This document shows positions 14,112-64,000 of a stretch of 64,000 bases of DNA, piece after piece. The stretch comes from an uncultured bacterium (GTDB lineage Bacteria; Eisenbacteria; RBG-16-71-46; CAIMUX01; WJJG01), in NCBI GenBank assembly GCA_964482205.1, contig CAYZWI010000007.1:25740-89739 (forward strand), read 5' to 3'. The position numbers and the translations under genes were made by a program. Within the stretch, counting starts at the first letter, position 1; every line of letters starts with the position of its first letter. The notes beneath the pieces were generated by a model. It was not told where the DNA came from and made no database searches. It saw nothing but the letters and a program-made list of their open reading frames with translations.

Positions 14112-15209
14112 ATGCGCTTTCGCACGACTAGAGCTTTCTCTCATCGCTTGGCAAAGGATGCCGGAATCGCGCACGAGCGGCGGCACTCCCCATCTGTCCG
14201 GCGAGGGTCGCTTTCGCCAAGGCCGGGCCGTTTTCCTGCGAACCCGCTTCTTCCCGGGTGGCCCTGGCTCCTGATGGCGGGGATCCTGCTCGCGCTCACG
14301 CCCGCGCCCGTCGCGGCGCAAGCCGGGCCGGTCGAAATGGCGCCCCTCGGTTTCCAGCCCCTGCCCGAAGACTACGCCCAGCGGTTTTGCCAACCGGTCG
14401 GCAACCAAGCCGAACGCGATCTGCCGACCTTCCTCGACTGGCGGGAGCGAGGCATCGTCACCCGCGCCAAGAGCCAGCAGACCTGCGGCGCTTGCTGGGC
14501 ATTTGCGGGCATCGCCTGCATTGAATCGATGTGCATCCTCGCGGGAGGCGACGCCCGGCTCGATCTCTCCGAGCAGCAGGCGATCTCCTGCGATGTGCAA
14601 TTCCGGTCCCAGTACGGTGTCCGAAACGATGGCTGCTGCGGTGGAACCGTGACGATCTTCGAGTACTTTCGAGAGAACTACGCGATCCTCGAGAGCGCCT
14701 TCCCCTACGGCAACGGCGACTTCGACGGCGAGAACGCGCGCTCGTGCGATGTGACTCCCTCGTGGGATACGGTGCCGTGTCCCACTTCCCTTCCGGAACC
14801 AACCGGTTGGCGGGTGGAGTCGTGGACCTTGATCGCGCCGCAACCGATCCCGACAGTCGATGCGCTGAAGCGCGCCCTGCAACAGGGACCGGTGTGGCTC
14901 GGCTACCGGGTGTACGAAGACTTCGTGGACTACTGGTACTACGATCGAGATCCAAGCCCCTACCGGCATGTCGATGGAGCGTACCTCGGCGGCCATGCGG
15001 TGCAACTGATCGGCTACGATGACGCGCGCCAATGCTGGATCGCGAAGAACAGCTGGGGAACGACCGGGCCGTTTCGGGACGGGACCTTCCTGGTGGCGTA
15101 CGACGGCAATTGCGACTTCGGCATCAATGCGGCGAGCGTGGTGGTCGCGCCCGCGCAGACGCCCACGAGGACGGCAACGCTGGGAAGCATCCGCTGGCTC
15201 TTCCGCTAG
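14112..15209 (+). CDS. secreted papain-family (C1) cysteine peptidase
   Basis: The catalytic Cys region is QQTCGACWAFAG. The His region is GGHAVQLIGYD. The Asn/Trp region is WIAKNSWGTTG. A hydrophobic signal-like segment (WLLMAGILLALTPAPVAAQA) lies about 50 aa in. GGAGG lies 8 nt upstream of ATG 14112. Confidence 0.8.
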   Translation: MRFRTTRAFSHRLAKDAGIAHERRHSPSVRRGSLSPRPGRFPANPLLPGWPWLLMAGILLALTPAPVAAQAGPVEMAPLGFQPLPEDYAQRFCQPVGNQAERDLPTFLDWRERGIVTRAKSQQTCGACWAFAGIACIESMCILAGGDARLDLSEQQAISCDVQFRSQYGVRNDGCCGGTVTIFEYFRENYAILESAFPYGNGDFDGENARSCDVTPSWDTVPCPTSLPEPTGWRVESWTLIAPQPIPTVDALKRALQQGPVWLGYRVYEDFVDYWYYDRDPSPYRHVDGAYLGGHAVQLIGYDDARQCWIAKNSWGTTGPFRDGTFLVAYDGNCDFGINAASVVVAPAQTPTRTATLGSIRWLFR

Positions 15210-15225: not shown

Positions 15226-16170
15226 TCAGAACTTGATGTTCTGGTGGGGGATCAGGTACAGCCCCGCCGTCACCACCGTCAGCGCGATCACGGCGATCGC
15301 CCAGGCGCGATCGGTCGGCCGCCCGAGCGCGACGCGCTTGCCGAAGATCTCGCGTCCTCTGATCCAGATCATCGCCAACCAAAGGACGAGCAGCAGTCCG
15401 GTCTTGGTGTCGGTGACATCCCGGCCGAACGGCCATCCTTCCCAATAGGTGCCGTACACCTGGTACTCGACGGGCATGCCGAGCAAGAGCCCGCCGATGG
15501 CAAGGCAGGCGAAGCCTCCCAGCACCGCGCGGCGCATCCATGCCAGCGCCTGCGAACGCGCGAGGTAGCGCCACGCGGCGATCAACGCAATGCCGAGCGA
15601 CACAATCCCGAGCATCATGAAGATCACATGCGTGACCAGCAGCGGCGTGGAAGGCCGGCCCTTGAACATGACGGCGGGCGATGCGCCCGCGCGATCGGAG
15701 GATCCCTCGGAGGCCGGCGCGGCCGACGGCCCCTCGTTCGAGGAAGCCGGCAACGAATAGCTGCTTCCGTCACGCAAGTCCAGGCGGACACGATAGGGAA
15801 CCCGCGTCCCGCGCGACTGATGAGGAATGCGCGCGATCCAGACATCCCCGCGACCGCTTGCCAGGGTGTCGCTGCGGACCTCGGGGCGCGGAGCGAAAGC
15901 CGTCTCGACCCAGCGATCTTCCAGCGAATAGAGGAGGACCAGCCGGGCCATGGAGAACTTGCCGGGCACGCGCGCCTGGATGTTCGCTTCCCCTTCTCCC
16001 AAATGCTCGCCGGGGGTCCGCACATGGATCGTGCCGGCGGGCGTGGAAAGCGCGACTTCGGGAATGACTCTTTCGCGCGCCGGCGAAGAGGAAGGTGCCG
16101 CGAGAAGAGCGAAGAGCACCATGGAGGCGCAGAAGACGAGTCGAGCGCGGGTCGCGATCTTTCGATGCAT
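15226..16170 (-). CDS. hypothetical membrane protein (signal peptide, about 170-aa extracytoplasmic domain, C-terminal 4-TM bundle)
   Basis: The start was chosen at MHRKIATRARLVFCASMVLFALLAAPSSSPA (ORF position 83) with a GGAAGGAAGGA RBS. The C-terminal hydrophobic helices include LLVTHVIFMMLGIVSLGIALIAAW. It is convergent with the peptidase gene. Confidence 0.5.
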   Translation of the reverse strand: MHRKIATRARLVFCASMVLFALLAAPSSSPARERVIPEVALSTPAGTIHVRTPGEHLGEGEANIQARVPGKFSMARLVLLYSLEDRWVETAFAPRPEVRSDTLASGRGDVWIARIPHQSRGTRVPYRVRLDLRDGSSYSLPASSNEGPSAAPASEGSSDRAGASPAVMFKGRPSTPLLVTHVIFMMLGIVSLGIALIAAWRYLARSQALAWMRRAVLGGFACLAIGGLLLGMPVEYQVYGTYWEGWPFGRDVTDTKTGLLLVLWLAMIWIRGREIFGKRVALGRPTDRAWAIAVIALTVVTAGLYLIPHQNIKF

Positions 16171-16505
16171 CGATCCTTCCTTCCTTCGTCTCCGACGCTG
16201 GCGAGCAGGCTTTTCGGCGACTTCGACCTTCTCTGCGATCCGTTGCTGCAGCGAGCAGTCTCTTCCAGTGCGGGGGCTTGACACAATGGGTCCGATGCGC
16301 AAGAAGGACCGCTTCGAGATGAGCCCCCTTCCGAAGCGGACGGCAGCTTGGCCGGCTACGACGCGAACCGTCCTTGTCACACCACCGCCACTGAGATTTG
16401 CCCGCTTCAGAGCCACGAAGCGCCGAAAAGAGAGCCCGGGACTGTAGCAAGGGCGCGGCTCTCAAACAAGGGGGCGGACGCTACGATGGCATACCGTCAC
16501 GATCC

Positions 16506-16577
16506 AGGAAGGGAACGAGAAGGAAAGGAAGAGAAGAAGGGAAGAGAAGAAGGGAAAGGAAAGCAAGCGAGCGCGTT
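16506..16577. repeat. approximately 70-nt polypurine (GAA/GGA-rich) tract; polypyrimidine on the minus strand
   Basis: Direct reading: aggaagggaacgagaaggaaaggaagagaagaagggaagagaagaagggaaaggaaagcaagcgagcg. It is almost exclusively A/G in a window of about 70% GC. It lies in an intergenic position between two minus-strand genes. Confidence 0.8.
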
Positions 16578-16617
16578 GAAGATTCGGCGTCCGGTGGCGG
16601 CCGCCTCACCGCTTTGG

Positions 16618-16851
16618 TCATGCGGGCCGGTTTTCGTCGTCGATTCCCCGGGCGGCGAACATGCGCCCGCGGCGGACGCCTCCGGCCTCATCCCCGACGG
16701 GCCGGTAACACCAGAAGAAGAGCGCGTCTTTCGATTGCTGGGCACGGTCGCTGGCCGCGCCGGCGCGGAAACGCCCGGCCGATCGGATCCACCAGCGCGC
16801 GAACCAGGCCAACGGAAGACCGACTAGAACGACGACCACCCATTCCCACAT
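16618..16851 (-). CDS. small hypothetical membrane protein (77 aa) immediately downstream of the KaiC-like signaling gene
   Basis: An in-frame ATG (MWEWVVVVLVGLPLAWFARWWIRSAGR...) has GAGGAG 5 nt upstream. It contains one predicted TM helix. It may be a GC artefact. Confidence 0.35.
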   Translation of the reverse strand: MWEWVVVVLVGLPLAWFARWWIRSAGRFRAGAASDRAQQSKDALFFWCYRPVGDEAGGVRRGRMFAARGIDDENRPA

Positions 16852-16900
16852 ACGATCTCCTCGATCTTCGACTCGACGCACCACCGGTTGCGCCGCCCCG

Positions 16901-18535
16901 TCAAGCCCCGTCGGTTCCGGTCGCGGCCGGAGACAAGGAGAGCCCCGTGCCGGACGCGAACACCTGCATCTCCTCGAACATCTCTTCCAGCAGGATGCGG
17001 GGCGCCGCTTCGCCGTCCGCGTCGCCGTCGAACGCGCGGGTCGACGCTTCGATCTGCCAGTCGCCGTGCGTCTCCCCCGCCGCGCGCACCTCGTCCTGCA
17101 GCTTGCGCCGGATGCGGCGCGCGAGCGAGCGCGCCCCTCCTTCGTTTTCGTGGCAGAGAAGCACGAGCGCGCGTCTCGGTTCCGAGAAGCAGAGAAGATC
17201 GCCCTCGCGAATCCCCGTCTCGAGCAGCGCGAAGAGCCGGTTCATCACCGCGACGCCTCCCGGATCCATTCCCGGATGGCAGCGAAACGCCACCACGCTG
17301 ACGGGGCTCGCAAAGTGCCGCGAACACCGCAAGGCGGTGCCGAAGGCCTCGGTGAAGTCGGCTTTGCGCATCTCGCGGCCGCGGGAGAGCCCCTGCAGCG
17401 CCGCGAGGCGCGCACCGTCGCCCGACGGCTCCGCGGCCCGCGTCAGACGCAGCATGCCGGCCGTCTGGATGCGCGCCGCGAGGACATCGAGGTCGAAAGG
17501 AGACTCGACGAAATCGGTCGCTCCATGAAGCAGCGCGCGGATGCGGTCCGAACGGCGGCGCCCGCCGAGCGACATGCAGATGATCGGCATCGTGTAGCGC
17601 CCGTCACGCAGCGCGCGCGCGACCATCAATCCCGAGATCCCGGGCAGGTCCTGTTGAAGGAGGATCACATCGGGCATGGAGGTCGCCGCCAGCGAGAGCG
17701 CTTCCGCGCCGTCGCCGGCGAGATCGACGCGCATGCGAGGACTGAGCAGCTTGACCAGTTCGCCGACCCACGGCCCTTCGCGCGAGGCGATCAACACGCG
17801 CTTGGAATGCGGAGCGCGCGCCGGTTCGCTCCCCTTCGCCGCGGCCGCGCGGTCGATGGGAATGAGTCCCGTCTCGAGCGCGATCGCGTACGAAAGCAGC
17901 CCGCCCGAAACGCTCGCCTGCCGCGACCGCTCCACCCGCATGACGAAGGGCCCCGGCTGGCCGGTGCCGCGCGCGACGGCCAGCTCGGCCGCGCCCCAGC
18001 ACCGGTCGCGCAAGGCTTCGAGCAATCCCGAGTGGCGGTGCAGCGAATCCGTTCTCGCGAGCAGGAGCGCGCTCCAGCCCATTTGCTCGCAGCGGCCGAT
18101 CAGGGTCTCGACATTGTGACGGATCTCGTCCTTGCGGCCATAGGCGCGGAAGAGAGGAATGAGCGGATCGAGCACGATCGCGCCCACATCCGGCCCCTTC
18201 GAAGCGAATTCGGCGAGATGATCGAGAAACGCGGTCATGCCCAGCGCCCCGATCTGATCGCTCACTTCGTTCGCGTACGGGCAAAGGACGAAACGGTCGT
18301 GGCGCCAATCCGCCTCGAGCGACAGGCCGAGTAGCGAGGCCTGTTGCAGCACATGTTCCGGAGGGTCGGTGGTGAGAAAGAGGACCCGGCGGTCGACGGC
18401 CGTCCACGCGTGCGCGACCTGCAACGCGAGCACCGTCTTCCCCATGCCCGGATTTCCGTGGAAGAGATATGAGCGCCCGGGCAAGAGCCCGCCCAGCACC
18501 GCCTCGATGATCGCTGGCTGCCGGAATTCCGACAT
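16901..18535 (-). CDS. multidomain signaling protein: KaiC/RecA-like ATPase + response-regulator receiver + degenerate GGDEF-like domain
   Basis: The Walker A motif is FHGNPGMGKTVLALQVA, within a KaiC/RecA-like fold. The receiver domain is KRVLIASREG...DVILLQQDLPGISGLMVARALRD...PIICMS. The C-terminal region has a GGDEF-fold pattern, but the GG(D/E)EF motif is replaced by FSEPRRA (VSVVAFRCHPG ... GDLLCFSEPRRALVLLCHENEGGARSLARRIRRKL). The start is the ATG at ORF position 24. Alternative starts are GTG 18604 and ATG 18574. Confidence 0.7.
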   Translation of the reverse strand: MSEFRQPAIIEAVLGGLLPGRSYLFHGNPGMGKTVLALQVAHAWTAVDRRVLFLTTDPPEHVLQQASLLGLSLEADWRHDRFVLCPYANEVSDQIGALGMTAFLDHLAEFASKGPDVGAIVLDPLIPLFRAYGRKDEIRHNVETLIGRCEQMGWSALLLARTDSLHRHSGLLEALRDRCWGAAELAVARGTGQPGPFVMRVERSRQASVSGGLLSYAIALETGLIPIDRAAAAKGSEPARAPHSKRVLIASREGPWVGELVKLLSPRMRVDLAGDGAEALSLAATSMPDVILLQQDLPGISGLMVARALRDGRYTMPIICMSLGGRRRSDRIRALLHGATDFVESPFDLDVLAARIQTAGMLRLTRAAEPSGDGARLAALQGLSRGREMRKADFTEAFGTALRCSRHFASPVSVVAFRCHPGMDPGGVAVMNRLFALLETGIREGDLLCFSEPRRALVLLCHENEGGARSLARRIRRKLQDEVRAAGETHGDWQIEASTRAFDGDADGEAAPRILLEEMFEEMQVFASGTGLSLSPAATGTDGA

Positions 18536-18705
18536 GATCGCCCCACTGGCCTGTTCGTCGCCCGCCGCGCGCATGCAGGGGCCGCGCGCGGCGACGGAAT
18601 TCACCCCCCGGATTTCCCAACGCTTTCTCTATCGGCAGGAAGGGGGCGTCTCTCCATCGATTGCGGGAATTTCACGCCGCTTGCTCCCGCCGCTCCACGA
18701 GTCCT

Positions 18706-62150: not shown

Positions 62151-62555
62151 ATGTCGGGCGAACGCGTCTTGATCGTGGACGACGACTCCAGCGTCTCGCG
62201 AGTGCTCGCGAGGATCTTCGAGCGGCACGGATACATCGCGACCACCGCACCGGACGGCGAATGGGCCTTGAGCCTGCTCGCCGAACAGAGCTTCGATGTG
62301 CTCATCTGCGACATCCAGATGCCGCGCATGAGCGGCCGTCAGCTCTGCGAGCGGATGGCCGCAGTCGGGCCCGAAATGCCCGCCTGCACGCTGATCGTCA
62401 CTTCGCGCTCCGAGCAGGAGGAACGCTCCTGGGTCGAAGCCTTCCCGGGCGTCGGACTGGTCGAGAAGCCGGTCGGTCCCAAGCAACTCCTGCGCATCGT
62501 GCGTGAGCGGCTCGCGACGCAGCCGTCCGCCGACCAACAGCGGAGGGCCGCATGA
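62151..62555 (+). CDS. single-domain response regulator (CheY-like receiver)
   Basis: Blocks are RVLIVDDD, DVLICDIQMPRMSG and LIVTS. Lys is present in the last block (VEKPVGPK). Confidence 0.85.
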   Translation: MSGERVLIVDDDSSVSRVLARIFERHGYIATTAPDGEWALSLLAEQSFDVLICDIQMPRMSGRQLCERMAAVGPEMPACTLIVTSRSEQEERSWVEAFPGVGLVEKPVGPKQLLRIVRERLATQPSADQQRRAA

Positions 62556-64000
62556 CGTCCAGCCACGGACCTGCGTTCCGGGCGTTCGTTTCCACGCAGT
62601 ACGCGGAATTCCTGCGCGATCTGGGCGCCGCGCTCGCAACCCCGCTCGCGATCCTGGACGCGGCCGGCATGGCCGTGTGCCGCCCGCCGGAGGAAGAGAT
62701 CCACCCGCAGCCGGCCCAGCGCCGTGCGGCGGGCCTCCCTCACACGCAGGCGATCAATGTCACCGCGCCGATCGTCTGCCACGGCGAGCGGCTGGGAAGT
62801 CTGGTCGCCTACGGCGCGCAGCCGGAACTGCAGGAAATGCTCGTGACGATGGCCGAGCAAATCGGCGAGCGCTTCCGTCTCGAGACCGATCTCGACCGGA
62901 TGACCGATCAACTCGCGCAATCGTACGACGAGATCAACCTGCTCTACGGATTCGCGCGCTTGCTGCGGCCGGAGGAGAGCTTCGGCGCCAACGCCAAGCT
63001 GCTGCTCGACGAGACCGCCGATCTGCTCGAGCACCGCCTGCTCGTGCTGCATCAGAGCGATCCTCCACTGATCGCCTGGTCGGCCGGACCGGGATTGCGC
63101 CTGGATGCCGCCCAGCATTGGGCGATGACGGCGGACGCGGCCGTCGCCGAATTCGAGCGCGCCGCCTCCGCCACCGATGCCGTGCCGGGCACCCGCCGGC
63201 CGGGCGCCCTGCAGACGCCCCACGGCACAGTCCACTATGTCGTCTGTCCCGTGCGGATGCAGGAACGCTTCGCCGGTTATGTGGGCGCGGTGCGCACCAC
63301 CTACGAGCCCTTCTTCGAGACCGGAGAGCTGCGCCTGATCGAATGCCTGGCGGCCGAGATGGGCAATGCCGCCGTCGCGCAACGGTTGAACCGCGAATTG
63401 CGCGATCTGCTCTTTCACACCGTGCGCAGCCTGGTGGCCGCCATCGACGCCAAGGACGAATACACCCGCGGGCATTCCGAGCGCGTCTTCCATCTCTCGC
63501 GCGCGCTCGGGCGGCGCCTGGGAATCTCGGCCGAGGACGAGCAGACTCTCTCGTGGGCGGCGCTGTTGCACGACATCGGCAAGATCGCGCTGCAGGGCGC
63601 GGTGCTCACGAAACCGGGGCGCTTGAGCGCGGAAGAGTTCGCCCTCGTGCGCGGGCATCCCGAGTGGGGTTGCCGCGTGCTCGACCCCATTCCTCAGCTG
63701 CGGGCGGTGCTCCCCGGCATCCGCCATCATCACGAGCGCCTCGACGGGCGGGGATACCCCGACGGCTTGCGCGGCGAGGAGATTCCCTTCATCGCGCGGA
63801 TCATTGCGGTGGCCGACGCCTACGACGCGATCACTTCCACCCGCTCGTATCACGAGGCGCGCTCCCAGGAGGAGGCGCTCGCGCGCATCTCGGCCGACGC
63901 GGGAACGCAGTTCGATCCGCAGGTCGTGGGCGCGCTGCTCGAGCTGGCCGCGGAAGGAACGCTGGCCGACATCCTCTCGCCTGCCGATACCGAGGATGCG
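62552..64000 (+). CDS. HD-GYP domain c-di-GMP phosphodiesterase with an N-terminal GAF-like sensor region (3' end beyond the window)
   Basis: The frame is open from the ATG overlapping the response-regulator stop (ATGA) to the window end. It contains HSERVF, LLHDIGKI and HHHERLDGRGYPDGL (the HD-GYP signature). The minus-strand ORF 62339..63853 is the antisense artefact. Confidence 0.8.
   Translation, partial: MTSSHGPAFRAFVSTQYAEFLRDLGAALATPLAILDAAGMAVCRPPEEEIHPQPAQRRAAGLPHTQAINVTAPIVCHGERLGSLVAYGAQPELQEMLVTMAEQIGERFRLETDLDRMTDQLAQSYDEINLLYGFARLLRPEESFGANAKLLLDETADLLEHRLLVLHQSDPPLIAWSAGPGLRLDAAQHWAMTADAAVAEFERAASATDAVPGTRRPGALQTPHGTVHYVVCPVRMQERFAGYVGAVRTTYEPFFETGELRLIECLAAEMGNAAVAQRLNRELRDLLFHTVRSLVAAIDAKDEYTRGHSERVFHLSRALGRRLGISAEDEQTLSWAALLHDIGKIALQGAVLTKPGRLSAEEFALVRGHPEWGCRVLDPIPQLRAVLPGIRHHHERLDGRGYPDGLRGEEIPFIARIIAVADAYDAITSTRSYHEARSQEEALARISADAGTQFDPQVVGALLELAAEGTLADILSPADTEDA

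Follow-up and report, generated by a model that had tools for sequence, protein, structure and literature searches.

A putative c-di-GMP receptor with an intact KaiC-type P-loop and a small membrane partner, resembling BcsE and BcsF, in Candidatus Eisenbacteria

What does a protein do that joins a KaiC-type ATPase to a receiver and to a GGDEF-like domain, and what is the role of the tiny membrane protein encoded directly after it? The question is raised by two adjacent genes in a 64,000-nt stretch from an uncultured bacterium of the Eisenbacteria lineage (assembly GCA_964482205.1, contig CAYZWI010000007.1, positions 25,740 to 89,739), hereafter the window. The answer that we favor, with a probability of roughly 0.55, is that the large gene encodes a BcsE-like three-domain receptor for cyclic diguanosine monophosphate (c-di-GMP) and the small gene a BcsF-like single-pass inner-membrane tether. 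Domain identities, motif states and conservation were computed for both proteins; feature positions are collected in Table 1.

The architecture of the large protein is clear. Pfam identifies a KaiC ATPase domain above the cutoff (PF06745, residues 37-189, E = 4e-10) and a receiver (Response_reg, PF00072, residues 289-380, E = 2.6e-14), with GGDEF_2 appearing only below threshold (residues 432-509, E = 0.009). These scans, a full-length structure model (predicted local distance difference test, pLDDT, 79.7) and profile homology bear out the three domains proposed in a sequence-only reading of the stretch. The best single sequence match in the PDB (phmmer) is PleD, with an E-value of 3.7e-15. 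That first reading had also cautioned that the open reading frame (ORF) might be split by a frameshift. The frame is unbroken, and a protein on deposit from a Candidatus Eisenbacteria metagenome-assembled genome (MAG; P0001, NCBI) matches it over its full length at 98.6% identity (tblastn; 99% in the homologue listing), so the caveat does not apply. The position aligned to M24 is the start in all 11 full-length homologues of the family alignment, so the protein is most likely 544 amino acids (aa) long, its true start probably being the ATG at 18535. Residue numbers nevertheless follow the 567-aa maximal ORF throughout.

P0001 is annotated only as a ‘response regulator’, and the middle domain was initially taken for a canonical receiver with its acceptor Asp. 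Alignment to PleD and within the family contradicts this. In the phmmer alignment to PleD, PDVILLQQDLPG lies opposite PDIILLDVMMPG, placing Q317 on the acceptor Asp, and DFVESPFD lies opposite DFLTKPID, placing S368 on the conserved Lys. The acidic pair (DD) is replaced by A-S in the window protein and by A-[SC] across the family. Not one of the 18 core members has the acceptor Asp or the conserved Lys, and only the β4 Ser/Thr remains. Judged by these residues, the pseudo-receiver (REC*) cannot be phosphorylated in the usual way, and the protein would therefore not be a two-component response regulator. What REC* has instead is an invariant R-x-[ST]-[DE] motif (R350-R-S352-D353), which may be a second site for c-di-GMP. 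Two distant relatives with canonical receivers, P0045 and P0012, lack the motif, and it is present where the acceptor Asp has been lost.

The C-terminal domain has likewise kept a fold and lost a chemistry. Its model is confident (pLDDT 85; predicted template modeling score, pTM, 0.81), and the GGDEF assignment is supported by a match of the domain profile to the solved cyclase 6d9m (E = 1.2e-5; other GGDEFs are weaker) and by weak GGDEF_2 matches in 8 of 11 family members. An exhaustive hmmsearch of 1.84 billion representative sequences returned the family itself first, with 10 matches below 1e-30, followed by a tail at E-values of 1e-6 to 1e-3; among 59 of these tail matches, PF00990 was found in 48 and GGDEF_2 in 11. 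The proposal that the domain is catalytically dead holds up: E475-P-R-R-A479, inside the FSEPRRA pointed out earlier, aligns with the GG(D/E)EF signature, β1 ends F-R with the loss of the metal-binding Asp, and only one helix separates β1 from β2, which means that the P-loop/α1 substrate region of active cyclases is missing. PelD and BcsE have also been reported to lack this region (PMC7439463). Beside the degenerate signature, the window protein has Ser474 (codon 17183-17185), whereas 16 of the 18 core relatives, P0001 among them, have Pro (CFP); this adjoining change is a strain-level substitution.

Against this decay, the inhibitory site (I-site) stands out as the best-conserved part of the domain. 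The sequence-only reading expected it to be lost, but R466, D469 and R497 do not vary among the 18 core members. R497 aligns with the Arg of the GGDEF ‘AERIR’ motif, and we take it to be the third primary I-site residue, equivalent to PleD R390. A dead active site with a retained I-site is a pattern typical of c-di-GMP receptor GGDEFs, and this retention makes a receptor role for the degenerate domain (GGDEF*) likely; the suggestion that it might be a c-di-GMP or protein-interaction module was thus a reasonable one.

The extreme C-terminus is conserved too, in two forms. A TGTDG(x) ending occurs in 10 of the 18 core members and in the distant relative P0045, and a basic RRWGT-type tail in the other eight (RRWGT in five; RRWAT, RSWGT and RRKGA in one each). 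T564 is invariant in the 11-member family alignment.

The small ORF, first noted for its single transmembrane (TM) segment and GAGGAG ribosome-binding site, is a real and conserved partner, separated from the large gene by 49 nt in the window. A homologous ORF lies 3' of the sensor gene in 11 of 13 distinct organisms and is absent from loci L002 and L016. Its size varies across the family from 61 to 95 aa, and all copies have the same arrangement, with an invariant L-F-F-x4-P behind an N-terminal TM helix and a basic stretch. Of the ten copies measured, nine have LFF at residues 39-45, and L018 has it at residue 62. Within the RRWGT-tail subclade, the small-ORF ATG overlaps the stop of the large gene as ATGA, which implies translational coupling; the codons of that tail share nucleotides with the small ORF's ribosome-binding region and start, and part of the tail's conservation may therefore be at the nucleotide level.

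Table 1. Positions of the two genes, their domains and motifs in the window, and of a conserved element found in related loci.
Feature	Position	Strand	Remarks
Maximal ORF	16901-18604	minus	567 codons from GTG at 18604; single unbroken frame
Three-domain protein CDS	16901-18535	minus	544 aa from M24 plus stop; start shared with homologues
KaiC/RecA-like P-loop NTPase domain	17855-18523	minus	aa ~28-250
Walker A, G50-N-P-G-M-G55-K56-T57	18434-18457	minus	GxxxxGK[TS] invariant, 18/18 core members
Walker B strand, A-I-V-L-D146-P	18164-18181	minus	D146 invariant in 18 core members
Pseudo-receiver (REC*)	17450-17809	minus	aa ~266-385; canonical receiver fold, phospho-acceptor chemistry gone
Q317, phospho-acceptor position (PleD D53)	17654-17656	minus	Q, E or T in 18 core relatives; never D
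R350-R-S352-D353	17546-17557	minus	invariant R-x-[ST]-[DE]; start of REC* helix α4 (β4-α4 junction), 8 residues before β5 ‘GA’
Degenerate GGDEF (GGDEF*)	16949-17377	minus	aa ~410-552; one helix between β1 and β2
I-site, R466-E-G468-D469 (RxxD)	17198-17209	minus	invariant in 18 core members; 5 residues upstream of signature position; aligns with 6d9m REVD
E475-P-R-R-A479, GG(D/E)EF signature position	17168-17182	minus	variable within family
R497	17114-17116	minus	invariant in 18 core members; aligned with Arg of GGDEF ‘AERIR’ motif
C-terminal tail, T562-G-T564-D-G-A	16904-16921	minus	conserved extreme end
GAGGAG ribosome-binding site	16857-16862	minus	5-nt spacer to small-ORF ATG
Small membrane protein, 77 aa	16618-16851	minus	starts 49 nt after stop of large gene
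TM helix of small protein	16786-16842	minus	aa ~4-22; one N-terminal hydrophobic helix
Invariant L44-F-F...P51 of small protein; LFF	16714-16722	minus	after basic stretch
Conserved element of related loci	L001 10023-10246; L002 9832-10055; L003 9946-10163; also L005, L006, L011-L016, L018		

Which known system does this pair resemble? Foldseek matches of the full-length model in the PDB include KaiC, PleD and BcsE chains 9fnn, 9fp0 and 9fo7, the last three from the Escherichia coli cellulose secretion macrocomplex and the BcsE2F2 subcomplex. The BcsE matches have E-values of 7e-15 to 4e-14 over 488-566 alignment columns and span all three domains. BcsE consists of a RecA-like NTPase* modeled on KaiC, with a degenerate Walker A, a phosphotransfer-incompetent REC* and a GGDEF*; I-site I (R415TGD, in GGDEF*) and I-site II (R306ATD, in REC*) together hold an intercalated c-di-GMP dimer, and the last ~40 residues bind BcsQ. 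BcsF, a peptide with a single TM segment, tethers BcsE to the membrane through its cytosolic tail, which adds a β-strand to the BcsE N-terminal domain, and BcsF truncations around P43 disrupt macrocomplex assembly (PMC7439463, PMC7840130, PMC11470070).

The window protein has the same domain order, with a RecA/KaiC-like NTPase, a phosphorylation-incompetent receiver and a degenerate GGDEF. Both proteins carry an ‘RxGD’ I-site on GGDEF* (R466-E-G-D469 and R415TGD) and an RxxD on REC* placed 8 residues before the β5 ‘GA’ (R306...G317A318 in BcsE), and hhalign puts R350-R-S-D353 in register with R306ATD, at low confidence. The spacing between the two motifs is 116 residues here, against 109 in BcsE. 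The C-terminal tail is conserved in this family and functional in BcsE. Like bcsF after bcsE, the small ORF directly follows the sensor gene, and its product has a single TM helix at the N-terminus, then a basic stretch, then LFF; in E. coli BcsF (63 aa), the TM helix lies at about residues 7-25, ahead of a basic stretch, LFF at 38-40 and P43. The ATGA overlap of the RRWGT-tail subclade also recurs in E. coli, where bcsF overlaps bcsE by 4 nt.

The differences are equally plain. Walker A and B are intact in 18 of 18 core members, whereas BcsE has a degenerate pair, and each domain is structurally far nearer its canonical family than the corresponding domain of BcsE. The hosts are Eisenbacteria, not the enterobacteria in which BcsE was characterized, and no bcsA, bcsQ, bcsR or bcsG lies nearby. 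The architecture, initially judged unusual, is best seen as a variant of the described BcsE-BcsF kind and so is not unprecedented; what does set it apart from BcsE is its intact ATPase motifs.

Several results weigh against a BcsE-BcsF-like reading. The large protein has no Pfam CBP_BcsE (PF10995/GIL) match at E ≤ 1, and hhalign gives probabilities of 0.2% against E. coli BcsE, 0.15% against an alignment of 14 BcsE sequences and below 1% for each domain. For the small protein, the hhalign probability against BcsF is 1.8%, with only ‘pLFF’ placed on ‘RLFF’, and there is no Pfam BcsF match. The Foldseek match may be one of three common folds in the same order, the LFF correspondence is a post hoc three-residue motif, and synteny within a single phylum is a poor guide to functional linkage. 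In the 64-kb window, tblastn found no homologue of BcsA, BcsB, BcsC, BcsG, BcsQ, BcsR or BcsZ, neither tblastn nor a Pfam survey of the ORFs found poly-N-acetylglucosamine (PNAG) genes, and no GGDEF cyclase was seen. By sequence, then, membership in the BcsE (PF10995) and BcsF families is rejected, with hhalign probabilities of 0.15-1.8% and nothing from Pfam. Since every sequence-based test was non-significant, we claim resemblance, not membership: the pair is probably built like BcsE-BcsF and probably works like it. Common descent and convergence are both possible sources of the likeness.

Might the ATPase be the whole story? A KaiC-like, ATP-driven signaling ATPase or autokinase, in which the pseudo-receiver and dead GGDEF served only for dimerization or scaffolding and sensed no cyclic dinucleotide, would account for the N-terminal domain well. 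That domain is a single, unduplicated RecA-like unit in Pfam and in the structure model, its nearest structures are KaiC CI and archaeal KaiC-like ATPases, and it looks competent, its Walker A and B motifs being intact and invariant in the family. An acidic residue, D80, follows strand 2 in the position of the KaiC catalytic Glu, and the KaiC-type R228/Q229 are present. The Thr-rich TGTDG tail, with its invariant T564, could be an autophosphorylation or docking site, and archaeal KaiC-receiver fusions are known as signaling hubs (PMC5847659). We nonetheless consider this explanation, the main rival, unlikely; it leaves unexplained the three invariant I-site residues and the REC* RxxD amid a decayed GGDEF catalytic apparatus, and why that RxxD occurs only where the acceptor Asp has been lost.

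A second alternative, which we rate as improbable, accepts the I-site pocket but assigns it another ligand, such as a different cyclic dinucleotide or (p)ppGpp. Hypr GGDEFs make cyclic GMP-AMP (PMC6456294), PleD-ppGpp structures are among the PDB matches (9g85), and no GGDEF cyclase was seen in the window. Set against this, the combination of RxxD and Arg binds c-di-GMP in the characterized receptors PelD and BcsE (PMC7439463, PMC7840130, PMC11470070), and the window does have an HD-GYP-type gene.

The ‘clock-like’ function suggested for the protein at first, as a circadian or hourglass-type KaiC timer, fares worse and is very hard to sustain. It draws on the Pfam KaiC match and the structural matches to KaiC, but the single RecA-like domain shows no CI-CII duplication, no region matches the KaiC S431/T432 phosphosites, tblastn finds no KaiB in the 64-kb window, and genuine KaiBC loci look quite different. 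Weakest of all is the case for an ordinary response regulator and diguanylate cyclase of the PleD kind, switched on by Asp phosphorylation. It agrees with the best single PDB sequence match and with the receiver-GGDEF order but is refuted by the loss of the acceptor Asp, acidic pair, Lys, GG(D/E)EF, β1 metal-binding Asp and P-loop/α1.

Other characterized systems share parts of the design. PleD (receiver-receiver-GGDEF) has a receiver followed by a GGDEF domain, and in it c-di-GMP cross-links the I-site to the adaptor receiver domain. PleD differs in being an active, phosphorylation-controlled cyclase; here an ATPase takes the place of the first receiver, and the acceptor Asp and catalytic motif are gone. 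Degenerate GGDEF receptors of the PelD/PopA/FimX type differ in their partners (TM and GAF domains in PelD, two receivers in PopA), and none has an N-terminal P-loop ATPase. Single-domain KaiC-like ATPases, including PH0284, FlaH/ArlH and the archaeal KaiC-receiver fusions, lack a GGDEF module and any described link to cyclic dinucleotides. In the literature searched, nothing pairs ‘KaiC-like’ with ‘c-di-GMP’, and the BcsE structure paper alone pairs ‘BcsE’ with ‘KaiC’.

How might a BcsE-like receptor with a competent ATPase operate? From these parallels we infer ligand binding, tethering, coupling to the ATPase and an output, as follows. As in BcsE, an intercalated c-di-GMP dimer would sit between the I-site of GGDEF* and the RxxD of REC* and lock the two domains together. 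The cytosolic LFF tail of the small protein would dock on the NTPase domain by β-strand addition, as BcsF does on BcsE, and hold the sensor at the membrane. The NTPase, unlike that of BcsE, would bind and probably hydrolyze ATP, so that c-di-GMP occupancy could be coupled to ATP-dependent oligomerization or remodeling. The conserved C-terminal tail may bring in a downstream partner, the part that the BcsE C-terminus plays for BcsQ, and ATP binding or hydrolysis would, together with this tail, pass the signal on to it.

The nature of the output is suggested by distant relatives of the same architecture. P0045, with its canonical receiver, and P0037, a paralogue in the genome that also encodes P0007, are both encoded directly upstream of a tetratricopeptide repeat protein and then a PgaC/IcaA-like glycosyltransferase family 2 (GT2) synthase (L007 6001-12433; L009 2130-6374). 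The synthase matches, at E-values of 2e-64 and 7.5e-62, are below the equivalog cutoff. In L007, a 75-aa small ORF and a polysaccharide deacetylase follow the synthase, forming a PNAG-like exopolysaccharide gene set. These operons tie the wider family to synthase-dependent exopolysaccharide systems, the biological setting of BcsE, and because this paralogous clade lies in PgaC-like operons, control of an envelope or polysaccharide process seems the most likely output of the window protein as well.

A bolder and more doubtful idea is that the window protein is a ‘proto-BcsE’, an ATP-competent, c-di-GMP-gated ATPase of the KaiC/RecA superfamily that a BcsF-like peptide keeps at the membrane, and that its Eisenbacteria relatives preserve a series leading toward BcsE. 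The series would begin with P0045, which combines a canonical receiver, an intact P-loop, a GGDEF with only the I-site and a PgaC-like operon. The window's clade would stand in the middle, with a pseudo-receiver that gained a second RxxD and a dedicated tether, and enterobacterial BcsE, with three degenerate domains, would stand at the end. If this tentative scheme were true, the family would add a new class of c-di-GMP effectors, one that puts a RecA-type motor or kinase under the control of the second messenger, and the window's clade would be an effector uncoupled from the polysaccharide synthase and placed beside an extracytoplasmic function (ECF) sigma factor in most genomes.

Why does such a pair matter? 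In structural papers, BcsE figures as an accessory to cellulose systems of the E. coli type (type II), and the origin of its three degenerate domains is left open (PMC7439463, PMC7840130, PMC11470070). A family in a distant phylum with the same domain order, two RxxD motifs, a BcsF-like partner and an apparently live ATPase offers a plausible picture of the ancestral sensor state, and predicts a class of c-di-GMP effectors that couples the messenger to ATP turnover. What appears to be new is a sensor-tether pair of the BcsE/BcsF type with a live P-loop, outside a polysaccharide operon and in an uncultured phylum; the kind itself has already been described. Our searches of the literature found no signaling study on Candidatus Eisenbacteria, and the reading proposes a function for proteins of this phylum annotated only as ‘response regulator’. 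It also corrects that annotation, the receiver being non-phosphorylatable and the protein so not a two-component response regulator.

The family is small: at 50% identity, the representative library contains ~18 clusters of it, and there are nine species-level loci, labeled as Candidatus Eisenbacteria or as unclassified ‘uncultured bacterium’ MAGs. Loci from other taxa (L019-L027) were considered as members and rejected, being receiver-only matches or genuine KaiBC loci. Among the latter, L021 (5660-7829; also L024 and L026), from Acidobacteria (Vicinamibacterales), has a double-domain KaiC, a KaiB-like gene and a downstream receiver gene, and is unrelated to the family.

Gene order is conserved across family loci. 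It starts with Maf, which is encoded on the other strand, and continues with the sensor gene and the small TM ORF; after a gap of ~500 nt come an ECF sigma factor and further genes, then a membrane protein without a Pfam match and a papain-like peptidase convergent with the sensor gene. The window departs from its relatives in having no ECF sigma factor and none of the aminotransferase that follows the sigma gene in L001 and L005. At 16170-16617 (minus orientation), a gap of ~450 nt replaces the small conserved ORF and ECF sigma factor of the other Eisenbacteria loci examined, and it includes a ~60-nt polypyrimidine (CT-rich) tract on the minus strand at ~16505-16568. Beyond the gap are a ~313-aa membrane protein with no Pfam match (15226-16170, minus) and, convergent with it, a papain-family C1 cysteine peptidase (14112-15209, plus; PF00112, E = 3e-30); the same pairing occurs in L001 and L002.

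Elsewhere in the window, the Pfam survey turned up housekeeping genes and, as far as polysaccharides are concerned, only a generic GT2 ~14 kb away; a polysaccharide or Bcs context in the window was rejected, as none was found by the survey or by tblastn. The survey also registered, without mapped positions, an RseP-like M50 peptidase that has PDZ domains, a histidine kinase and a protein with a DAC domain (DisA_N, of the c-di-AMP synthase type), so several signaling genes are present in the window. At the far end, a stand-alone receiver of 134 aa (62151-62555, plus; PF00072, E = 4e-22) adjoins a GAF and HD-GYP-type protein (~62600-64000, plus; HD_5, E = 1e-39) that runs off the window, making a candidate c-di-GMP phosphodiesterase pair. 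The GAF-HD-GYP gene suggests turnover of c-di-GMP by the organism. In L003, L013, L014, L015 and L018, similar HD_5 genes are found at a distance of 3-5 kb from the family gene.

A final observation concerns the related loci. In 12 of 12 of them, the stretch from the BcsF-like ORF to the ECF sigma gene includes a conserved element, which the window lacks. It comprises a promoter-like CTTGAAA-N18-GAAAAT, a 5' core, GGCTAYGRCNATGTTCG, that includes an ATG, and a 3' core, GCGTAGCTCC, that includes a TAG. A 7-bp pairing between the two cores is conceivable; as a non-coding RNA, however, the element has no Rfam match, and in 11 loci the distance from ATG to TAG is always a multiple of three (207-240 nt), with the frame open where checked, which favors a small protein. 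The element is thus probably an unannotated, Cys-containing gene product of 69-80 aa, with the pattern M-T-M-F...FC...W-x-P-x-C-A.

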